The notes beneath the pieces are model-generated. The model searched no databases and had not been told where the DNA came from. It worked only from the letters and a program-made list of their open reading frames with translations. 19,785 bases of DNA, taken from IMG/VR virus record IMGVR_UViG_3300000301_000085. One strand, given 5' to 3'. Of the stretch, positions 3,228 to 19,750 are shown one piece after another. This stretch comes from a virus (taxonomy: Duplodnaviria > Heunggongvirae > Uroviricota > Caudoviricetes). Every line of letters begins with the position of its first letter. The stretch's first letter is position 1. The translations under genes were made by a program, and so were the position numbers.

Positions 3228-3596
3228 TCACTCGTTCTCTTGAGTAGATGAGTCCCCATTCCCTCGGGGTTGATCTTGCCCGCTTTCTTGGGCTGTACCA
3301 CGATCATAAGTAAGTACTGACTTATTTTCAAGGGTATTTAGATCATTTTTTGGAGGAAAATTCAAGAGATCTTTGTCAAATTCCTTTTTCATCGCCTCAG
3401 TAATGTTCGGGAAAATCTTCTCAATAAGCATTTCCATCTGGTGACGACGTACAGAGTCCGGTGCCTGAAGTAATGACAGTTTCTCGGCAACAGAAAATTC
3501 ATCAGTAAGGCCACGAATATCGAAACTTTCTGGATACGCAATTAAAGAGTGGTCTTCGTCCAGATCTACCCCCATCCATTTCGCAACCAGTAGCAT
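3228..3596 (-). CDS. hypothetical head-morphogenesis protein (5' end uncertain, may start inside masked segment 3637-3719)
   Basis: Open frame distinct from the portal frame; first unmasked ATG at 3596-3594, just after portal stop 3607; acidic C-terminus. Confidence 0.4.
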   Translation of the reverse strand: MLLVAKWMGVDLDEDHSLIAYPESFDIRGLTDEFSVAEKLSLLQAPDSVRRHQMEMLIEKIFPNITEAMKKEFDKDLLNFPPKNDLNTLENKSVLTYDRGTAQESGQDQPRGNGDSSTQENE

Positions 3597-4910: not shown

Positions 4911-6167
4911 CTATCGTGAACCACCAAGAATAACACGGTTTTTGACTGGATACCTACGATGTACTGGATAGCCCAATGCGTCTGCACTATGCTCAATGCC
5001 ACCTGTCTTATCCATATCTCGTGTTCCAGGCTTGTAGATGACTTTTTCCAGTGAATCAATCAAATGCTTGCACTTCGGATCGATATACAGCCGGATATCT
5101 CCAGATGCGGTCATCAGCATTCGGTTAACAGCATTAACACGATCCGCAATTGGCGGGTGCTTTTTCGAATAATCGACACGTAAGAATCCCTTCTCTTTGA
5201 ATATGTCGACGTCAGACTCCCCGCGAGCATGTTGGCGATAAGCACCTGCCGGATCTGGAAATACCGTTATCTGTGATTTCCAGCGCCAGAAGCGTCTCTC
5301 AAGCTCATCACAAACCTCTGCCGTGTTAGAGGAAAAGAGCACCAATTCATCAATTGCCCATAGCTCACCATTTGGCTGAGGTTGCAAAATTACTGAAGAC
5401 ATCGGGTCAATGTTGAAGTCCTGCCCTACCCATATAGGCAACCGAGGGTTGAACTGAAGCGGTTTTACATGCACGTTACGATCGAACGGGTAGTAAACGC
5501 GCCCGGACATGTTCTCAAAGCTCGCCAGGTACTCCTGAGCGAACGATTTCGGGTCCATATCGTTCTTAGCAGCTTCAATTTCCGCCGTAGGTACAAACGG
5601 AGAATCGGCAGTTACAAACTGCCAGCTCTTCCACTGTCCCTTTCTTTGCAGCTCTACGTTCTGGCCTATAGTCCACAGTTTGTGAAATTCCGAGAAGCCT
5701 TTTGGCGTACCAATGATCAGTGCACCGCCGCGTGTCGATGAAAGAGTAGGTCGTAACACCTTGTACCAGGTGTCAGCCTTCATATCCTGAAATTCATCAA
5801 GCACTACAAAATGCAACGCTACGCCGCGCAGAGTGTCAGGCTTATCAGCACCTTTGAGGGCGATCTCCGAACCGTTCTTCAACACGATTGTCATCGTGGT
5901 GTCGTTCTTTTTCCTAACCCACTTACGAGGCAGAACTTCCTGTAGATCGTCCCACAAAATCTGGCGAGCCATCTGGTATGTAGGAGCGACATACCAGACC
6001 CTTTGCTTTTTTTCCTTTGCCGCCGCACGAATAATAGTGGAGATCGACAACCGGGATTTTCCCCAGCGTCGACCAGCACAAACAACTTTAAATCGATGCG
6101 GAGACTGGAAGACTTTCATCTGTCCAGAATGCAGTTGCACAAGACTGAGCGAGGACGGGATTGCCAT
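4911..6167 (-). CDS. terL: terminase large subunit
   Basis: Walker A VCAGRRWGKS, Walker B-like LHFVVLDEFQD, LIIGTPKG, C-terminal nuclease-like acidic motifs (VGQDFN, IEHSADALGY); start overlaps upstream stop (TAATG at 6165-6169). Confidence 0.9.
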   Translation of the reverse strand: MAIPSSLSLVQLHSGQMKVFQSPHRFKVVCAGRRWGKSRLSISTIIRAAAKEKKQRVWYVAPTYQMARQILWDDLQEVLPRKWVRKKNDTTMTIVLKNGSEIALKGADKPDTLRGVALHFVVLDEFQDMKADTWYKVLRPTLSSTRGGALIIGTPKGFSEFHKLWTIGQNVELQRKGQWKSWQFVTADSPFVPTAEIEAAKNDMDPKSFAQEYLASFENMSGRVYYPFDRNVHVKPLQFNPRLPIWVGQDFNIDPMSSVILQPQPNGELWAIDELVLFSSNTAEVCDELERRFWRWKSQITVFPDPAGAYRQHARGESDVDIFKEKGFLRVDYSKKHPPIADRVNAVNRMLMTASGDIRLYIDPKCKHLIDSLEKVIYKPGTRDMDKTGGIEHSADALGYPVHRRYPVKNRVILGGSR

Positions 6168-6799
6168 TATTCGTCCTCCCCTTCACTTCCATCATCTGTC
6201 GCATCAAATTCGCTTAGAGCTTCTTCTTCCAACGTCTCAAGCAATTCGTCATCGATGATTTCAGGCTCGTCGTCTTCCTGACGTAATTTCGCCACCTGGG
6301 AAGGCGTAAGCTCACCAAATACCAGGTTCGGAATTTCTTCCTCGTCATTTTCCGCATGATCCATGCCCAATGCTTTGGACGAAACTTCAAAGCATTTTGC
6401 AAGGGTATTACTGGCTCTCTGTAAGCTCTTGAGAGAATCCTCAATCGCCACTAAAGGCTTACCCTCACGTTTGGCCGTAGTGACTTCGACCATCACCATC
6501 TGCCCCAACGCATACGCCCAGCCGTCATAACGTGTACGACGTTCTTCTATCTTTTCCGCACGGGCTTTAGCGCGAAGCTCTGCGTCAGATTTAAGAGACT
6601 CACGAACCATCTTCCCAACAGAGTCCGCGCCTTTCTCTAATCCTCGCTTTTTGAAATGTCTGGAGAGTGTTTCACGACGAATGCCGTACTCTTCCTCCAG
6701 CTTTGAGAGTGTATATTCGCCTGACGTCCATTTGGCTTCAGCTTCGGCCCACTCCGCTGGTGTCAGGCGAGTTTTTACCTCGTCTTTTTCGACCGTCAT
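6167..6799 (-). CDS. terS: putative terminase small subunit
   Basis: 210 aa, N-terminal HTH-like segment (TLSKLEEEYGIRRETLSRHFKKRG), strongly acidic C-terminus, translationally coupled to terL. Confidence 0.6.
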   Translation of the reverse strand: MTVEKDEVKTRLTPAEWAEAEAKWTSGEYTLSKLEEEYGIRRETLSRHFKKRGLEKGADSVGKMVRESLKSDAELRAKARAEKIEERRTRYDGWAYALGQMVMVEVTTAKREGKPLVAIEDSLKSLQRASNTLAKCFEVSSKALGMDHAENDEEEIPNLVFGELTPSQVAKLRQEDDEPEIIDDELLETLEEEALSEFDATDDGSEGEDE

Positions 6800-6805
6800 A
6801 GATCC

Positions 6806-6838
6806 CTCTAAAACACACAGAGCGCGTCCATGCGCTCT
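6806..6838 (-). terminator. terminator-like hairpin plus U-tract in the leader just before the terS SD (possible attenuator)
   Basis: Plus-strand AGAGCGC-GTCCAT-GCGCTCT (6819-6838); the minus transcript reads hairpin then GUGUGUUUUAGAGGGAUCU-AUG. Confidence 0.45.
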
Positions 6839-6879
6839 AAAACAACTTGTTTACTGCATCTGCTAACCAACTTGTTTTC
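6839..6879. promoter_or_regulatory. two copies of the AACAAcTTGTT palindrome (operator-like) in the late-operon leader
   Basis: AAAACAACTTGTTTA at 6839-6853 and ACCAACTTGTTTTC at 6866-6879; same core as elements upstream of the small genes at 16.6-19.7 kb. Confidence 0.5.
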
Positions 6880-6994
6880 TGGGGTGTTTAATTAGGTCTG
6901 GCATGTCTTACGAAGCCTGCTTCCGTATATATTTAATAAGTTACTTATTATTTATATATACAGATGCAGGTCTTTAAATAAGCTCCCAGACCGA

Positions 6995-7261
6995 TTACAT
7001 CACCAGTAACTTCGCTTTGGCTCGACCTAAAGTGGTTAACCCAAGAGTCCGGCGGTGATAGCGATTGTCACTGCGTTGGCGCGTATGCCCTTTCTCCACC
7101 AGCCCCTTTTTTATCAGAGCGCGAATTGAGAACTGGATACTTTGCTTGGTTGTCTTGTACGGCAAAACTTCAAGCAATTCGTCCAGGTCAAGTAGATGAC
7201 CTCGCTCATAACCGAGATTGAGCGTTTTGATGATGTCCTTTTGTTTATCGGTTAACGTCAT
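6995..7261 (-). CDS. small winged-helix/HTH-like DNA-binding protein (candidate regulator)
   Basis: 88 aa, basic; AAGGA SD before ATG 7261; helix-like segment TTKQSIQFSIRALIKKGLV; sits between the cassette and the late leader. Confidence 0.5.
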   Translation of the reverse strand: MTLTDKQKDIIKTLNLGYERGHLLDLDELLEVLPYKTTKQSIQFSIRALIKKGLVEKGHTRQRSDNRYHRRTLGLTTLGRAKAKLLVM

Positions 7262-7361
7262 GGCAAATCCTTATGCCGGTAAAGCAATTTCTAACGGTTT
7301 ATCCAAAGGTTGTTTGTCGAATGCCAGCAGTGGCAGCGTGTCAGGCAGTCGACGGCCAAAG

Positions 7362-8316
7362 TCAGGGTTTCGGTACACACCATACAACGGANNNNNNNNN
7401 NNNNNNNNNNNNNNNNNNNNNNNNNNNNNNNNNNNNNNNNNNNNNNNNNNNNNNNNNNNNNNNNNNNNNNNNNNNNNNNNNNNTGTGAATGTCCTTGAGC
7501 AGCTTCACAATGCTGGCCTCGTCCACCAGACTGTCGGCAATGTCCTGAATCGTCGTGCCACGATTCCGCCCAGCTTTTGCCAGGGAACTGTTCTTATGGT
7601 AGTCCGCCACCAAATCGCGCAGCGCACGGCGACGACGAGACTCGCTCATAGCGAACAACTCTTTGACGATCGCCTCGTTATCACCCGGGTCGGAGCGGAA
7701 ATGGCGCTGGAACACACGCAGTGCACTTTCATAGCTCTTCGGTCGCTCAGGGCGGATGAACTTAAACCCTGCTTTCATGGCGAAGGGATTGTATTTGCTC
7801 ATCGAGGACTGGATCTCAATGATTGGCCGGTCATGCATCCTGCTAACCAGGTTAATCATTCGATAAGAGACGCCTACGCCACGATACTGAGTATCCACAA
7901 CTGAGCGACTGATCACCGCAAAGTTGTTATTCACGTACCGACCCCAGTANNNNNNNNNNNNNNNNNNNNNNNNNNNNNNNNNNNNNNNNNNNNNNNNNNN
8001 NNNNNNNNNNNNNNNNNNNNNNNNNNNNNNNNNNNNNNNNNNNNNNNNNNNNNNTTGGTTTCAACTTAGGAAACATGCGGTGGCGAGGTGCCAACAGTAG
8101 TTTCGGGTAAGCCATAACCACGACGCCCACCAGACGGTCATCAAGTTCGCAGCGATAGTAAGTTGGCGCGAAAGGTTTGCCGTCTGTTTTGTAGTGAAGC
8201 GACTTAAGAGCGTGCCAGTCCTCTACAGTCCCCTTTGTAACAGTCATTCGCTCCAGAAAGTCCAGATGACGCGGAAACTCTTCAGGGCGGTAGCGTTTAA
8301 TGATGATGTCCGTCAT
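7362..8316 (-). CDS. GNAT-fold acyltransferase-like protein with C-terminal extension (interrupted by masked segments 7950-8054 and 7392-7483; frame differs across the first)
   Basis: N-part LVGVVVMAYP (beta strand); C-part FAVISRSVVDTQYRGVGVSYRMINLV (R-G-x-G motif A-like) and NPFAMKAGFKFI (motif B-like); start ATGA-coupled to the upstream ATPase stop (8313-8316). Confidence 0.45.
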
Positions 8317-9064
8317 GAATGGACCTCATCATGAATACCATTGTGATATTCCACCTTCACGCGTTCTTTGTAGTGCTTGGTGATCTGCATATCAGGGCGC
8401 AGCGCGTTCTTCAGGTCTTCGTGAGTCGTCGCCACCATTACCGTCGCACCAACCTTTCGAGCGGCACGCTGGAGGTTAGACGCCACAACCTGAGCGGTTA
8501 CACGGTCGAGAACAGCGCCGAACTCGTCAGCAGCCCATACTTTAGCGCCTGACTCAATCAGTTTGGCAATCTTGAGACGATATTTCTGGCCGTCTGACAT
8601 TTCAGAAGGCTTGCGAACAAACAGATATGCATCGTTCAGACCAGCCATAGATANNNNNNNNNNNNNNNNNNNNNNNNNNNNNNNNNNNNNNNNNNNNNNN
8701 NNNNNNNNNNNNNNNNNNNNNNNNNNNNNNNNNNNNNNNNNNNNNNNNNCGCATCACTGGTCGTTTTGCCCAACTGATCGATGACGTTAACCTCATTATC
8801 GAAGGTAAAATCATCGATGGAGGCTACAGACAGCCCTTCATCCTTCATCTGTCGTTGCAACTCGCGCAGCACAACGGATTTGCCGGAACCGGATTGGCCG
8901 GTGATGTACACCACATCGCCCTGCTTCACTTCCAGCTCCAGATTGTCGTAAAGCGTCCACTCTTTTTCGTCCAGGCCAAGCCCGAACGACTCAGCGATTT
9001 CCAACGTGCGCGTGGTTTTATTTACGCGTGTCTGAAACGATACGTTGATGATGTATTTGCTCAT
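8313..9064 (-). CDS. ABC-type ATPase (nucleotide-binding-domain-like, ~250 aa; two ORF segments, frame changes at masked segment 8654-8749)
   Basis: Walker A YITGQSGSGKS; signature-like SDGQKYRLKIAKL; Walker B/D-loop VWAADEFGAVLD; H-loop MVATTHED; ATGA coupling to the ParB-like gene at 9061-9064. Confidence 0.7.
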
Positions 9065-9729
9065 GCAGCCATCTCCCCGGAAGAGATCTTCTCCGCATAT
9101 GCCACAAATGCGTCTACCCCGCTTTCTCCCGTCATTTCTTCCATATGGGCAAGCAAATCACCAACAACAATGGCAGAGCCAGCAGGGAGCGTTTTAAAGC
9201 CCAATACGTCGACAACACGTACTTCTTCCGCTGCAACTTCACGACTGATCTCGGTGTGTTCATCCTTCTGTCGTTTAGTTTCTTCGCCAAGATCGATAAC
9301 TAGCGAGTCGGTGTCCATTTCTTCTGTCATACTGCCAACGAGAACATTCAACTCACGCTCTTCAAAGCCGAAAACCTCGATATCGTCCAGAACAAGCGAC
9401 TCAAGCTCTTTCTGTAGCTTAATTGCATCGTAATCAATGCTGGCAAGTCGGTTATCTTCAAGGCGCTTCGCACGAACCTCGTCATCACTGAGATCATCGC
9501 GAACAATAACCGGTACGCGCTCAAGTCCAGCAAAAATTGCAGCCTCACGGCGGCCGTGGCCAGTAATAATTACGTCGTTCTTATCGACCGTAATTGGCTG
9601 GTCAAATCCGCGCTTTTTAATGGCTGCGGCCAGATCTCTGATCTGCTGTTCATCATGCTTTTTGGCATTCATCTCATAGGGAATAAGATCTGCCGGGTCG
9701 CGATATACGATTTCAAACTTTTTGGTCAT
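9061..9729 (-). CDS. ParB/Srx-like N-terminal-domain protein (paralog 2)
   Basis: ITGHGRREAA (GxxRxxA ParB box); ATG at 9729-9727 overlaps the upstream stop (TAATG). Confidence 0.75.
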   Translation of the reverse strand: MTKKFEIVYRDPADLIPYEMNAKKHDEQQIRDLAAAIKKRGFDQPITVDKNDVIITGHGRREAAIFAGLERVPVIVRDDLSDDEVRAKRLEDNRLASIDYDAIKLQKELESLVLDDIEVFGFEERELNVLVGSMTEEMDTDSLVIDLGEETKRQKDEHTEISREVAAEEVRVVDVLGFKTLPAGSAIVVGDLLAHMEEMTGESGVDAFVAYAEKISSGEMAA

Positions 9730-10409
9730 TACATACGCTCCTTGTAGTAGTCGACCAGCCACACCAGAGCCTCACCAGCGTTCTCCATTTCATTACCGGT
9801 GTTAATAGCCTGCTCTTTGATGATGTTTTTTATGGTTTCTGCAACACGATCTGACGCATCGAAAGTTACTTTGAAGCGCATGGTCTGATGTTCCGCACCC
9901 ACACGTTCGGTTTTCTCTCGTTTGTCGGTATCGACAGGCTCATCACTACCACGAGACAACGCCTCCAGTGCTTCAAGGTCGATTGCCGCCTCTTTTGCTA
10001 AAACCATCGAGATTTCGTCGTCATACGGAGCGATTTCAGACAGTTGATAGTCAAGTTCTGACTGAATTTCTTCAATGAAGCGTTGCAATGCGATTTGGTC
10101 GTCTTCACCGTATCGCTCGTTGTCCACCAGTGACATCTGTTTAGCTACGACATCGCTAATTTTGCCCACAGAAAGCACCGGAACCGTTGAAATTCCTTGC
10201 TCAATAGCAGCACGCCAGCGATGTTCACCGCCGAGGATTTCAAAAAATCCATCTTCAAGTTCACGAGCCAAAATTGGCTTAAAAAAGCCCAATTTTTCGA
10301 TAGAACCTTTCAGTTTTTCAAAATTCTGCGCACCAACCGAATTGGTGTTCCAGGTATTCGGGCGAAGGTTGGCAACATCAACCTGCAAAATCGTGATTTT
10401 TACATCCAT
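9729..10409 (-). CDS. ParB/Srx-like N-terminal-domain protein (paralog 1)
   Basis: ILGGEHRWRAA ParB box; ATG 10409 preferred over GTG 10427; first gene of the leftward operon. Confidence 0.75.
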   Translation of the reverse strand: MDVKITILQVDVANLRPNTWNTNSVGAQNFEKLKGSIEKLGFFKPILARELEDGFFEILGGEHRWRAAIEQGISTVPVLSVGKISDVVAKQMSLVDNERYGEDDQIALQRFIEEIQSELDYQLSEIAPYDDEISMVLAKEAAIDLEALEALSRGSDEPVDTDKREKTERVGAEHQTMRFKVTFDASDRVAETIKNIIKEQAINTGNEMENAGEALVWLVDYYKERM

Positions 10410-10491
10410 TTTATTGCTACAATCCACTAAGTAATCACTTACTTATTATAATAGCCAAATAACATACAAAAGGCACTAAGGAAAGAGGTTT
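10410..10491. promoter_or_regulatory. divergent promoter region with palindromic operator-like site
   Basis: TATAAT at 10447-10452, palindromic with its minus-strand counterpart; inverted repeat TAAGTAA-TCAC-TTACTTA at 10428-10445; AAGGAAAGAGG SD before ATG 10492. Confidence 0.5.
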
Positions 10492-12133: not shown

Positions 12134-12412
12134 ATGAGTGAAAAGAAAACAACTTACTGTCAGGTAGCATTGTCTGATAAGGCCAATGACAAACTTGGAA
12201 AGTTTCAAGTGAAACTAAAAGAAAAAAATATCAAAATGTCTAAGGCTGAAGTCATAAATACCATTCTGGAACAATTGACAATGGCCGACTTTGACAAGGT
12301 TATATCTTCTGTCGGGGCTTCCGCTAAGACTCGTGAGAAAATCATGCGTATCTATGAGAACTCTAATATGACAAAGGAAGATCTCGAAACGCTATTAAGC
12401 AGATTAAAATAA
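12134..12412 (+). CDS. small protein, possible ribbon-helix-helix DNA binder
   Basis: 92 aa; starts 3 nt after helicase stop; N-terminal beta-strand then two helices (TTYCQVALSDKANDKLGKFQVKLKEKNIKMSKAEVINTILEQL). Confidence 0.45.
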   Translation: MSEKKTTYCQVALSDKANDKLGKFQVKLKEKNIKMSKAEVINTILEQLTMADFDKVISSVGASAKTREKIMRIYENSNMTKEDLETLLSRLK

Positions 12413-12909: not shown

Positions 12910-13440
12910 ATGGAGACACAAAAGCGTTCAGGGTGTTCACCAGCAATTCTGGTGACATCGACATTCTGCCAACAACTCTGTGATGACATGACAACCAAAG
13001 ATATTACCTACGGTATCCAAGCTGAACTCTGGCCGCGAGATTACACTAACGTTGAAAAANNNNNNNNNNNNNNNNNNNNNNNNNNNNNNNNNNNNNNNNN
13101 NNNNNNNNNNNNNNNNNNNNNNNNNNNNNNNNNNNNNNNNNNNNNNNNNNNNNNNNNNNNACAAATTCCTGTAAGGGTCACTCTCGAAGATGGCCAGGCG
13201 TTTTGCATGTACGTTTATGGCCTCATGCCATCTCGTAACAAAGTTGACCTTTGCCCAGCCCCTTTTGACAAAGAAAATCGTATAAGGCTCCCACTTGAAC
13301 GCATTAGTACAATTGAATCAGGTGTGGTTGANNNNNNNNNNNNNNNNNNNNNNNNNNNNNNNNNNNNNNNNNNNNNNNNNNNNNNNNNNNNNNNNNNNNN
13401 NNNNNNNNNNNNNNNNNNNNNNNNNTCAAAGGTCGACTAA
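12910..13440 (+). CDS. hypothetical protein(s); two masked segments, continuity unproven
   Basis: Open frame through masks 13060-13160 and 13332-13425; no recognisable motif; weak SD. Confidence 0.3.
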   Translation: METQKRSGCSPAILVTSTFCQQLCDDMTTKDITYGIQAELWPRDYTNVEKXXXXXXXXXXXXXXXXXXXXXXXXXXXXXXXXXXQIPVRVTLEDGQAFCMYVYGLMPSRNKVDLCPAPFDKENRIRLPLERISTIESGVVXXXXXXXXXXXXXXXXXXXXXXXXXXXXXXXXSKVD

Positions 13441-16603: not shown

Positions 16604-16675
16604 GATTAATTCCTTATCGTAAATAACAAATTGTTTTCTTGTTGGTGTTAATTATCGTTGTACGAATAAGGCGTC
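16604..16675 (-). promoter_or_regulatory. cassette promoter plus AACAAaTTGTT palindrome (element E1)
   Basis: Minus strand TTGACG...GATAAT then AAAACAATTTGTTAT then SD; about 35 nt near-identical to E2 and E5. Confidence 0.5.
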
Positions 16676-16780
16676 AAAGTGGAAAGTTGCGGTAGCCGGA
16701 CGGGAACAGGTGGGTTTGTCGGTTGCCTGGAGGTAAGAGGTTGGTGTTTTTAGCCTGCGGGAAACAGGATGGTCATTTAA

Positions 16781-16800
16781 GGCCACCAGCATTGGTGGCC
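16781..16800 (-). terminator. conserved GC-rich hairpin 8 nt after the stop (terminator-like, weak U-tract)
   Basis: GGCCACCA-GCAT-TGGTGGCC. Confidence 0.4.
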
Positions 16801-16807
16801 TTAATCT

Positions 16808-17098: not shown

Positions 17099-17165
17099 CT
17101 CACTGCGTAAACATGTTGTTTTCTTGTTGGTGTAATTATCGCAGTGTAGATAAAGCATAAAAGAA
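17099..17165 (-). promoter_or_regulatory. cassette promoter plus AACAtgTTGTT palindrome (element E2)
   Basis: Minus strand GATAAT then AAAACAACATGTTT then SD; flanked by inverted repeat CACTGCG/CGCAGTG. Confidence 0.5.
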
Positions 17166-17251
17166 GTTAATACAGGCTGAATACACAAGAAAGGTTCTGG
17201 AAGTTGATAGCAAGGTTTCAAACTAACCTTCGGTTATTAAAAGTCATTTAA

Positions 17252-17272
17252 GACCACCAATGCTGGTGGCCT
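17252..17272 (-). terminator. conserved GC-rich hairpin (inverted-orientation copy of the one at 16781)
   Basis: GACCACCA-ATGC-TGGTGGCC, 11 nt after stop 17283. Confidence 0.4.
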
Positions 17273-17282
17273 TAATAATTAT

Positions 17283-17426
17283 CGCCCGATTACGCTAAGG
17301 ATCTTTTCCTCAACTGATTTGTTGTTGCGACTAAACTGCCTTGCGTATCTGATGACAGAAGAGGCGTTTCGCTTTCTGACCATCTCGGCTCTCTCCTTCA
17401 GGCGTTTCTTGAAATCGCCCATATTT
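17283..17426 (-). CDS. tiny basic protein (47 aa)
   Basis: ATG 17426 lies 2 nt after the upstream stop (TAAATATG); MGDFKKRLKERAEMVRKRNASSVIRYARQFSRNNKSVEEKILSVIGR; below the ORF-track cutoff. Confidence 0.3.
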
Positions 17427-17799: not shown

Positions 17800-17849
17800 G
17801 ATGGTTTCCTTATTAAGTTGCTTCAGTGAAATCATTTTCACAAATCAGA

Positions 17850-17876
17850 TAAGGCAGAAAACAAATTGTTATCGGG
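17850..17876 (-). promoter_or_regulatory. AACAAaTTGTT palindrome upstream of gene 17425..17799
   Basis: Plus-strand AGAAAACAAATTGTTATCGG. Confidence 0.4.
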
Positions 17877-18345: not shown

Positions 18346-18374
18346 TTCTATGATCGTAAGTATGTACTTACAAT
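18346..18374 (-). promoter_or_regulatory. sigma70-type promoter for gene 17917..18312
   Basis: Minus strand -35 TTGTAA, 16-17-nt spacer, -10 TAGAAT. Confidence 0.5.
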
Positions 18375-18438: not shown

Positions 18439-18750
18439 TCAGGCTATTGCCATCACTGATGCTCTCTGAATCTCTTGCTGGGCCACGCGGTTAACTTCCA
18501 TCAAAGCCAGTTCGAGCTGATGTTCCGGCCACATTCTTTGAAATGCCACCCAGCCTTTTCCACGCTGGCGACGAACATTCATTACATAACGAGTAAAGGT
18601 GTTTTTATCGAAAGACACCGCTGTTTCACGGAACAGACGAATAGAGGTTCCATTGGCAACGATGTCCAGCAAAGTTAATTGAGCAACCAGCGCAGGCTTC
18701 TCTTTTCTCTTCTGGTCTTTGTCCAGACCAAGAACCAATGATTTTTTCAT
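18439..18750 (-). CDS. small basic protein (104 aa), possible nucleic-acid binder
   Basis: GGAG SD before ATG 18750 (MKKSLVLGLDKDQKRKEK...); K/R-rich. Confidence 0.55.
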   Translation of the reverse strand: MKKSLVLGLDKDQKRKEKPALVAQLTLLDIVANGTSIRLFRETAVSFDKNTFTRYVMNVRRQRGKGWVAFQRMWPEHQLELALMEVNRVAQQEIQRASVMAIA

Positions 18751-18830
18751 CACAACTCCGTAAACAACTTGTTTTCTCAATGGCGTAAATAATACCAGTA
18801 AGAAAACGGCTACAAAGCATATTGATCAGG
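18751..18830 (-). promoter_or_regulatory. cassette promoter plus perfect AAACAAcTTGTTT palindrome (element E3)
   Basis: Minus strand TTTGTAGCCGTTTTCTTACTGG-TATTAT then AAAACAAGTTGTTT then SD; about 85% identical to E4 over ~60 nt. Confidence 0.5.
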
Positions 18831-19234: not shown

Positions 19235-19310
19235 AAAGCAATCCTTAAACAACTTGTTTTCTGAATTGCGTAAACAATACCAGTAAGAAAACGGCCACAA
19301 AGTATATCGT
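19235..19310 (-). promoter_or_regulatory. cassette promoter plus AAACAAcTTGTTT palindrome (element E4)
   Basis: Minus strand TTTGTGGCCGTTTTCTTACTGG-TATTGT then AAAACAAGTTGTTT overlapping the SD. Confidence 0.5.
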
Positions 19311-19670: not shown

Positions 19671-19750
19671 CTCTTCATCCTCACTTCGTTTCTATAACGT
19701 CTAAATATGTTGTTTACTTGTTGGTGTTATTATCGAAATAAGACAAAGGC
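19671..19750 (-). promoter_or_regulatory. cassette promoter plus AAtAtgTTGTT palindrome variant (element E5)
   Basis: Plus-strand AAATATGTTGTTTACTTGTTGGTGTTATTATCG, near-identical to E1 and E2. Confidence 0.45.

Follow-up and report, generated by a model that had tools for sequence, protein, structure and literature searches.

The stretch of DNA studied here (19,785 nucleotides, IMG/VR record IMGVR_UViG_3300000301_000085; hereafter the window) carries on its minus strand terS (6167-6799), terL, the structural genes and, at 16-19.8 kb, several small genes. This work deals with a short palindrome, AACAAnTTGTT, that is repeated in the terS leader and in front of small genes, and with an RNA hairpin located just before the terS start. 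Identity with phages CMS-2020a and Cyrano reaches 99.6% over the 1.6-kb segment that was compared (window 5800-7390), and identity with Salmonella phage SSU5 and Klebsiella phage-plasmids is about 78-80%; by these identities the window is assigned as part of an SSU5/pHCM2-type phage-plasmid. The orientation of the window is antisense to the Cyrano record, and both the Cyrano and the SSU5 records have their position 1 at window 6933. Eleven N-masked runs (e.g. 7392-7483, 13060-13160, and 13332-13425) cut several genes, including one for an FljA-like protein, so that the open reading frame lists are unreliable there.

The symmetric core of the palindrome is 13 bp long (AAACAAnTTGTTT), with AACAAnTTGTT as its inner part, and positions +/-7 are not complementary. 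Exact copies of AACAAnTTGTT were found in the window at 6841-6851, 16625-16635, 17860-17870, 18763-18773, and 19248-19258, and copies with one mismatch at 6866-6876 (ACCAACTTGTT) and 17110-17120. The first-pass annotation of this DNA had placed eight copies in the terS leader and before the small genes, and had judged them far above chance. All of these are present with small corrections of their coordinates, although the copy at 19706 is degenerate, with two mismatches, so that the count is better given as five exact and two one-mismatch copies. The excess itself is clear: the five exact copies compare with 0.06 expected and five or more were reached in 0 of 200 shuffles, and the seven copies with at most one mismatch (1.49 expected) were likewise matched by 0 of 200. 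Furthermore, when all palindromes of the form 5+N+5 were counted de novo, AACAA-N1-TTGTT ranked first in the four loci analyzed, with 5 copies in the window, 4 in PhiR41_1, 7 in Klebsiella pJN2-26, and 12 in the distant Klebsiella plasmid pKqq_SB1124_3 (hereafter pKqq).

The same enrichment, which the first-pass annotation had proposed to check on a complete genome, was evident in that of Cyrano (108 kb), where 12 exact copies compare with about 0.3 expected and, when up to one mismatch is tolerated in the 13-mer, the count rises to about 18. All 12 exact copies are intergenic and lie 18-42 nt 5' of a start codon, the genes behind them being terS, parA, a DnaB-like helicase gene, CYRAN_58, nrdB, a tciA-like gene, CYRAN_87, CYRAN_101 (two copies), 106, 108, and 111; cobT is also among the Cyrano genes preceded by the site. 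In the 28-kb late operon the copies are confined to its leader. The site is kept at orthologous promoters in Escherichia, Klebsiella, Salmonella-type, and Yersinia relatives at DNA identities of 78% or less, and a scan of viral contigs with an extended motif returned mainly SSU5-like contigs and no independent family in which co-variation could be followed.

The anatomy of the site was described from 50 distinct sites collected from five loci, among which two classes were distinguished. In class B (24 distinct sites) the order is TGnGATAAT, a spacer (N), (C/A)AAGAA, AACAAnTTGTT, TA, the Shine-Dalgarno sequence (SD), and the ATG. A -10-like hexamer with A2 and T6 begins 25-26 bp before the palindrome centre in 19 of these 24 sites, and 13 of those 19 also have the TGn of an extended -10. 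The distance between palindrome and ATG is variable, indicating that the palindrome is coupled to the promoter and not to the ribosome site. Assuming that transcription starts about 7 nt past the hexamer, we infer that the class B palindrome occupies about +7 to +20, with its centre at about +13, and by this geometry a location just downstream of the start is that of a repressor or a roadblock. In the window, class B copies are found on the minus strand at 16624-16636 (exact, 27 nt 5' of the ATG of a 160-aa gene, with GATAAT at -26), 17109-17121 (one mismatch, TGcGATAAT at -25), 18762-18774 (exact, TGgTATTAT at -26, the SD beginning 4 nt past the palindrome), 19247-19259 (exact, TGgTATTGT at -26), and 19703-19715 (the degenerate copy with two mismatches, AAACAACATATTT, behind cGATAAT).

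In class A (15 sites) the order is a hairpin, GCCTTA, AACAAnTTGTT, TTCTGCCTTTTCTTATCTG, and GATAAT, so that, relative to the next promoter, the palindrome lies at about -38. When a class A and a class B copy are paired, their centres are exactly 51 bp apart, as seen in five of five pairs (two in pJN2-26 and one each in pKqq, Cyrano, and pMT1). Several class A copies sit between convincing terminators and the next -10 and are therefore outside the mRNAs. The class A copy of the window (exact; 17859-17871, minus strand) lies 13 nt past the hairpin AATGGCGCG-TAAAC-CGCGCCATT with its T-rich tail (TTCTTAT) and upstream of the next promoter. At this promoter, which has a class A copy only (17865), the class B position holds a different perfect palindrome, GTGAAA-ATGA-TTTCAC (17826-17841, minus strand), that overlaps the annotated start codon of the CYRAN_108 homologue; this start has no SD and may be misannotated. 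Two other kinds of promoter-associated element were discarded. A site for a late-promoter activator like P1 Lpa, with its repeat at -22, was rejected since the palindrome comes as close as 18 nt to the ATG and the site therefore cannot be upstream of a start point, and a phage RNA polymerase promoter, suggested by a loose likeness to the T3 promoter, was rejected as no gene of RNA polymerase size is annotated.

We favour the view that the site is read as duplex DNA by a symmetric protein, because the dyad symmetry is exact, with half-sites conserved to the base around a free central base, because it is maintained in two unrelated flank contexts and in class A copies that are not transcribed, and because the imperfect copies deviate on one side only (TTGGTT, ATGTT, TTATT, AATAA), no compensated variant palindromes having been found among the sites compared. 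These one-sided deviations and the absence of compensatory variants also led us to reject an RNA hairpin made by the palindrome itself. Another way of reading the site in RNA would be a regulon in which the FljA-family protein encoded in the window recognises the motif (AAACAAnUUGUUU) in 5' untranslated regions (5'UTRs), represses translation and destabilises the messages, like Salmonella FljA on fliC. This protein (about 12988-13440, plus strand) matches PF03614 over its full length (E = 1e-80), its gene is found in 835 related plasmids and is expressed in the Cyrano lysogen (CYRAN_114; log2 7-8 in most conditions of the transcriptome taken from PMC9928086, S1 table, with a background value of 9.8), and all the class B sites sit on the sense strand between promoter and SD. 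Its structural model is a tandem Hfq/Sm fold (predicted local distance difference test, pLDDT, 83.5), with matches to Hfq at 1.0-1.5 A over 57 residues, and the Salmonella fliC 5'UTR has CAAGTTGT just before its SD. However, the fliC leader is a weak match by the site matrix (1.5 bits vs at least 6.6 for true sites; shuffle p ~0.07), the class A copies lie outside transcripts, where an FljA-type operator should not be, and a strict dyad is needless in a linear RNA site, whereas a hairpin should show the compensatory changes that are absent here. Moreover, in pKqq the protein has only 43% identity left and the motif has not changed, and the own promoter of its gene has no copy of the site. We therefore consider an RNA-level regulon of this type decidedly unlikely; the link to FljA through the PF03614 protein and the fliC CAAGTTGT was rejected, the matrix score not being significant and the protein being a tandem Hfq fold. 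As for the protein itself, it is annotated as 'repressor of phase-1 flagellin', it is a core gene product of SSU5-like phage-plasmids, its gene is partly masked in the window, and a description of FljA as a tandem Hfq-like protein was not found in the literature.

With the site read as duplex DNA, we think it probable that one sequence-specific and probably dimeric regulator, encoded by the phage-plasmid and acting on promoters plasmid-wide, has AAACAAnTTGTTT as its DNA operator. As in dispersed-operator regulons, the site is over-represented and holds a constant register with respect to the predicted promoter. The proposal of the first-pass annotation, that one dimeric regulator could coordinate the small-gene cassettes and the late operon, is retained as to the shared palindrome, for which a dimeric binder is the most economical explanation. 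Its scope proved too narrow, because in Cyrano the site also precedes parA, the DnaB-like helicase gene, cobT, nrdB, tciA, and others. A host transcription factor common to Enterobacterales could also bind the palindrome, since the identical motif is present in elements from Escherichia, Klebsiella, Salmonella, Enterobacter, and Yersinia, and pMT1 retains sites though apparently without CYRAN_29, the candidate binder discussed below. However, the 40-fold enrichment is confined to the element, which points to a self-encoded factor, and the site is not known to match any of the common enterobacterial operator consensus sequences; a host factor is in our opinion extremely unlikely.

The palindrome might also have no dedicated binder and be part of a mobile promoter cassette, made up of a terminator hairpin, an extended -10, and a conserved initial transcribed sequence, that has been spread by recombination like the promoter early stem-loop (PeSL) elements, its symmetry being a by-product or serving recombination. 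In fact, the flanks are conserved too (GCC TTTTCTTATCTG..GATAAT..CAAGAA), many copies flank small variable genes, some pKqq promoters retain only the AAGAAAACAA half, and an exact 25-bp deletion between the terS copies represents a recombination of copies. Nevertheless, the palindrome is kept in the two unrelated flank contexts and in core promoters (parA, helicase, nrdB, and terS) whose flanks are otherwise different, six of the seven AAGAAAACAA occurrences in Cyrano belong to a full palindrome, and both half-sites are conserved base for base around the free central base, all of which makes a cassette without a binder very unlikely.

The terS leader was compared among 31 aligned relatives. 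On the coding strand it consists of a large inverted repeat, a -10-like element, operator copies 1 and 2, the hairpin, its tail, the SD GAGGGA, and the ATG. Copy 2 (6840-6852, minus strand) is a perfect 13-bp palindrome, AAACAAGTTGTTT, that is invariant in 31 of 31 relatives and ends 1-2 nt before the hairpin. Copy 1 (6865-6877, minus strand; AAACAAGTTGGTT), with its centre 25 bp upstream of that of copy 2, is imperfect in all the leaders that have it (TTGGTT or TTAGTT), and this deviation is conserved across lineages. In the pJN2-26 group of Klebsiella (about L005 21050-21080; rows L171, L180, L196, and L198), copy 1 has been lost through an exact 25-bp deletion that fuses both copies, which indicates that they recombine, and the pKqq leader also has one operator copy only, copy 1 being absent. 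Because one copy is kept in these two lineages, the alignment indicates that the perfect copy adjoining the hairpin is the conserved unit of the leader. In two-copy leaders the RNA of copy 1 can pair with that of copy 2, a pairing that we did not treat as conserved since the one-copy lineages lack it.

At the place taken by TGnGATAAT in other class B promoters, terS has a weak -10-like element, TAATTA (6889-6894, minus strand), in which the canonical T6 is missing. This element is poorly conserved (TAATTA, TTTTAA, GATTTA, GATAAA) and never has A2/T6 at the canonical register, and the missing T at position 6 suggests that the late promoter is weak or dependent on a factor. The large inverted repeat (6915-6972, centre about 6942) separates the terS promoter from the upstream operon. 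It is nearly perfect (GCCTGCTTCCGTATATAT ... ATATATACGGAAGCAGGC), with arms GCCTGCTTCCGTATATAT and ATATATACAGATGCAGGT and TAAGTTACTTA at its centre, and the par operon has it again at its end (Cyrano, L002 31157-31213), one arm being also found after a methylase gene (L003 28085-28099). It is probably an operon-end or insulator element, and its action at the operon end would argue that terS needs a promoter of its own, although a weak one. The GenBank records of SSU5 and Cyrano both begin within this repeat (window 6933). It could be an operon-end terminator or insulator, but also a centromere, or have to do with the genome ends. Its centre is one copy of a second palindrome family, TAAGT-N(1-4)-ACTTA, of which the window has four copies vs 0.09 expected (3311-3324, 6937-6947, 10428-10441, and 18357-18370) and which also recurs in PhiR41_1, pJN2-26, and pKqq. 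Another copy lies beside two TATAAT boxes, in the 64 bp that hold the divergent promoters of the ParB_N and uvsW operons, and this palindrome is probably the operator of a different regulator.

The GC-rich hairpin with its tail that the first-pass annotation had seen right before the terS SD is indeed there. The hairpin, TAGAGCGCATGGACGCGCTCTG (6818-6839, minus strand), is conserved; its stem measures 6-8 bp and its hexaloop reads AUGGAC (ANGGAN). It is followed by the tail TGTGTTTTAG, the SD GAGGGA, and the terS ATG (6797-6799), the ribosome-binding site and start codon spanning 6797-6808 on the minus strand. The main clade conserves the U-rich part of the tail, UGUGUUUUAG (6808-6817, minus strand), which pKqq lacks. 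Among 22 distinct sequences, standard pairs occupy 87.5% of the stem pair cells, and both sides have changed at two stem pairs, from G-C to A-U in two lineages, the whole stem being replaced in pKqq (GGCGUC/GAUGCC). The covariation score was reached by 0 of 500 shuffles and shifted partners cut the pairing to 62% or less. Furthermore, single changes in the stem yield U.G or G.U on the sense strand only, and for this reason the substitutions indicate that the hairpin is selected as a structure in the terS mRNA. The loops found were AUGGAC, AAGGAU, AAGGAA and, in pKqq, CAGGAAG, so that GGA is invariant in the 31 sequences, even where the stem has been replaced. Rfam covariance models gave no match in window 6700-7050, where they returned only two sub-threshold chance matches to microRNAs.

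A second GGA, the one within the SD GAGGGA, lies 21 nt downstream of the loop GGA, a spacing that counts as inside the range of distances at which two GGA sites are bridged. The protein CsrA recognises an ANGGAN hexaloop or the CsrB-type CAGGA(U/A/C)G, and the glgC leader has a hairpin site just 5' of an SD that itself carries a second GGA (PMC7652899). Because the loop is always ANGGAN and the second GGA falls in the SD at this spacing, we consider that the hairpin most likely recruits host CsrA or otherwise tunes the translation or stability of the terS mRNA.

The first-pass annotation had taken the hairpin and its tail for an attenuator that would need read-through, and the corresponding explanation would be a late-operon attenuator in which the palindromes load an antiterminator encoded by a small protein gene of the window. 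The hairpin was in fact labelled terminator-like by a consensus scan (8 pairs, of which 5 are G-C, and a 6-nt loop), the tail TGnGTGTTTTAG is conserved in the main clade, the poor -10 of terS fits a factor-dependent late operon, and the hairpin is directly preceded by the two operator copies. However, many promoters carry the same palindrome with no hairpin behind it, the proteins scanned included none that was recognised as antiterminator-like, and the 88-aa protein encoded beside terS is at or near background in the lysogen in lysogeny broth (LB), is only modestly higher in other conditions, and has no recognisable fold match. The terS tail, UGUGUGUUUUAG, also departs from the uninterrupted U tract of an intrinsic terminator, being interrupted (UGUGUGUUUU), and the tail UGnGUGUUUUAG of the main clade is GAGUGGUAGUAG in pKqq, where the hairpin and the GGA of its loop are kept. 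Because the U tail is kept in the main clade and absent in pKqq, termination cannot be, as judged by this comparison, the family-wide conserved function of the hairpin, although there may be partial termination at it in the main clade. The attenuator with palindrome-loaded antiterminator is thus unlikely, and the attenuator reading is supported in part only, the invariant feature of the hairpin being its GGA loop. In its sequence and predicted structure, the hairpin agrees with what defines a CsrA site, and it lacks one of the traits that define an intrinsic terminator.

If the palindrome is the operator of a regulator encoded by the element, the best candidate for its binder lies outside the window, and we propose it only tentatively. 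CYRAN_29 is a 119-aa protein whose gene start overlaps the stop of parA, with the same order in pKqq. The parA product, CYRAN_28, is a 222-aa ParA without a helix-turn-helix (HTH) that gives ParA/MipZ/CbiA matches, and a small Walker ParA without N-terminal HTH together with a small coupled gene is the arrangement of a type Ib partition locus. The palindrome covers about +10 to +22 of the parA promoter, which has a good -35/-10 (TTTACA-17-TAGGCT), and does not vary among 11 diverse loci with unrelated upstream DNA, pKqq having it with one mismatch; the par operon is the sole operon with both a recognisable maintenance or regulatory role and the palindrome in its own promoter. CYRAN_29 has a disordered basic N-terminal arm, the segment IKSRTMS(L/I/M)EDE, and a helix that starts with FTRSDVIRAAI, in a pattern like that of ribbon-helix-helix (RHH) proteins, with a strand IKSRTMSLEDE and helices at 48-60 and 70-84, as read from sequence. 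The basic arm and the predicted strand and helix segments are invariant while the overall identity drops to 49%, which we relate to the invariance of the operator, and homologues are present in 797 plasmids. Gene order and sequence pattern suggest that CYRAN_29 is a ParG/omega-like adaptor-repressor. In the Cyrano lysogen most genes behind the site are silent, including terS, CYRAN_101, 106, and 108, and the parA operon is moderately expressed (CYRAN_28/29/30, 50/89/55), as predicted by negative autoregulation. In the DNA upstream of parA (A5 rows L263 and L281) some lineages have runs of TTTTCAG/TTTTTCGA repeats, and several have a palindrome, TTGTACGG-N7-CCGTACAA, about 150 nt upstream of parA in otherwise mosaic DNA; these are possible alternative centromere or iteron elements.

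None of the candidates that the first-pass annotation had named within the window was favoured. The 88-aa protein beside terS (6995-7261; CYRAN_123) is about background in LB (7.8), with a modest rise in other conditions (log2 up to 6.6). The 92-aa RHH-like protein (12134-12412; CYRAN_117) is expressed in the lysogen (114), but its predicted strand residues change in pKqq (TYCQVAL vs VNCHLKL, 38% identity) while the motif is constant. The proteins encoded at 18439-18750 and at 17283-17426 (47 aa) belong to variable cassette genes. Fold searches on the 88-aa and 92-aa proteins and on the ParA partner gave nothing informative, a PDB sequence search having been made for all three and Pfam, PHROGs, AlphaFold, and Foldseek for some of them. 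A KorB/ParB-like role was rejected for the two ParB_N proteins (about 9061-10427; CYRAN_119/120), as they are at about background in the lysogen and are therefore unlikely lysogenic repressors; the UmuD-like protein CYRAN_98 is expressed at 148. The ParB_N proteins belong to an operon directly upstream of terS (7273-10427, minus strand) that also encodes an ABC-type ATPase and an ATPase-acetyltransferase fusion and ends with the 88-aa protein, and since it is at or near background in LB in the lysogen it looks like a lytic-phase module and not like a plasmid partition system. Between the small genes, a 28-nt GC-rich hairpin, TTAAGGCCACCAGCATTGGTGGCCTTAA, is found twice in opposite orientation (16777-16804, plus strand, and 17248-17275, minus strand), one of the copies having a single change.

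In the operator model, a protein bound at +7 to +20 would block open-complex formation, promoter escape, or elongation, and where a promoter has an upstream copy as well, there may be cooperation across it between two bound dimers. The terS leader would be the late-operon version of this arrangement, with the operon-end repeat, a weak -10, an imperfect and a perfect operator, the hairpin, and the SD, so that the same factor would hold down the 28-kb packaging, structural, and lysis operon as well as the replication, nucleotide-metabolism, and small-gene promoters. The hairpin would add a second, RNA-level layer on the terS mRNA. CYRAN_29 would act as a partition and repression protein like ParG, omega, or KorB, this being the weakest step of the model. 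A further extension can be imagined in which the ParA partner is the global repressor, its about 18 operators double as centromere-like sites and titrate it upon over-replication, and CsrA gates terS translation. Over-replication after induction would then free the replication, nucleotide-metabolism, and late packaging promoters together, and the whole would amount to a lysis switch coupled to copy number with host CsrA as physiological checkpoint; taken together, we regard this extension as speculative and improbable.

Several observations weigh against the interpretation proposed here. The class B copies are all also in the sense-strand 5'UTR, which makes an RNA-level role possible for this class, and the start sites were inferred from -10-like hexamers only. 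As terS has no proper -10, its transcription may come from elsewhere or need an activator that could itself use the sites, and the stem of its hairpin, with 6-8 GC-rich pairs, is more stable than the typical CsrA hairpins obtained by SELEX (the systematic evolution of ligands through exponential enrichment). With respect to CYRAN_29, AlphaFold gave a poor monomer model (pLDDT 64), and neither PDB, Pfam, nor Foldseek returned a match. Type Ib centromeres are normally repeat arrays and parA has a single palindrome instead, and several small unknown proteins share the site in their own promoters, so that autoregulation is not unique to CYRAN_29. Finally, Yersinia pMT1 seems to be without CYRAN_29 and yet keeps the sites, a weak test as pMT1 is evolutionarily young. 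There is no Yersinia record among the 797 plasmids with a CYRAN_29 homologue, and the Yersinia pestis pMT stretch of 30 kb (L298, 1-30104) keeps the terS leader, an A/B operator pair, and the FljA-like gene, with four one-mismatch copies of the site vs two exact ones.

Clinical Escherichia, Klebsiella, Enterobacter, and Salmonella very commonly carry SSU5/pHCM2-type phage-plasmids, and about 800 plasmid records share the core genes of these elements. In the literature we found no paper in which an operator, palindrome, or regulon is linked to SSU5- or pHCM2-type elements, and no account of lysogenic versus lytic control in these phage-plasmids. An operator with fixed promoter geometry would provide a direct experimental handle, as it predicts the regulon, helps to identify the master regulator, and gives mutations that would uncouple the late genes, and from the hairpin with its GGA loop one may propose a testable connection of virion production to host physiology through CsrA.

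Dispersed operators are used by several global repressors, such as C1 of P1, KorA and KorB of RK2 (KorB having 12 copies of a 13-bp palindrome), and omega of pSM19035. The system described here resembles those of C1, KorB, and omega in the many copies of one short site over a 100-kb element, on replication, maintenance, and phage promoters; it shares with KorB a site that is a 13-bp palindrome, and with KorB and omega a regulator that is possibly linked to partition. However, the sequence is unrelated and indicates no membership of these families, the site is here mostly just downstream of the start and not over or upstream of the -35, and the ParB_N proteins of the element are silent in the lysogen. 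With the tR' terminator of lambda, on which Q acts, the terS leader has in common a GC-rich hairpin and a U-rich tail between the promoter and the first late gene, but its interrupted U tract is not kept in pKqq, a Q-like protein was not recognised, and the palindromes are not specific to the late promoter. The Salmonella FljA/fliC 5'UTR operator is comparable in that a homologous protein is encoded in the window and the class B copies also lie between promoter and SD, whereas the fliC leader is no significant match to the matrix, class A is untranscribed, and the symmetry points to duplex DNA. The PeSL cassettes of T4-type phages are also repeated terminator-promoter modules flanking small variable open reading frames, although the site described in this work is strictly symmetric, stands at a fixed register, and is found on conserved core promoters as well. 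Finally, the hairpin resembles the glgC-type leaders controlled by CsrA (PMC7652899) in having an ANGGAN hexaloop just 5' of an SD with a second GGA inside it, and differs from them in a stem that is longer and more GC-rich than those of high-affinity sites and in its location at the head of a phage late operon.

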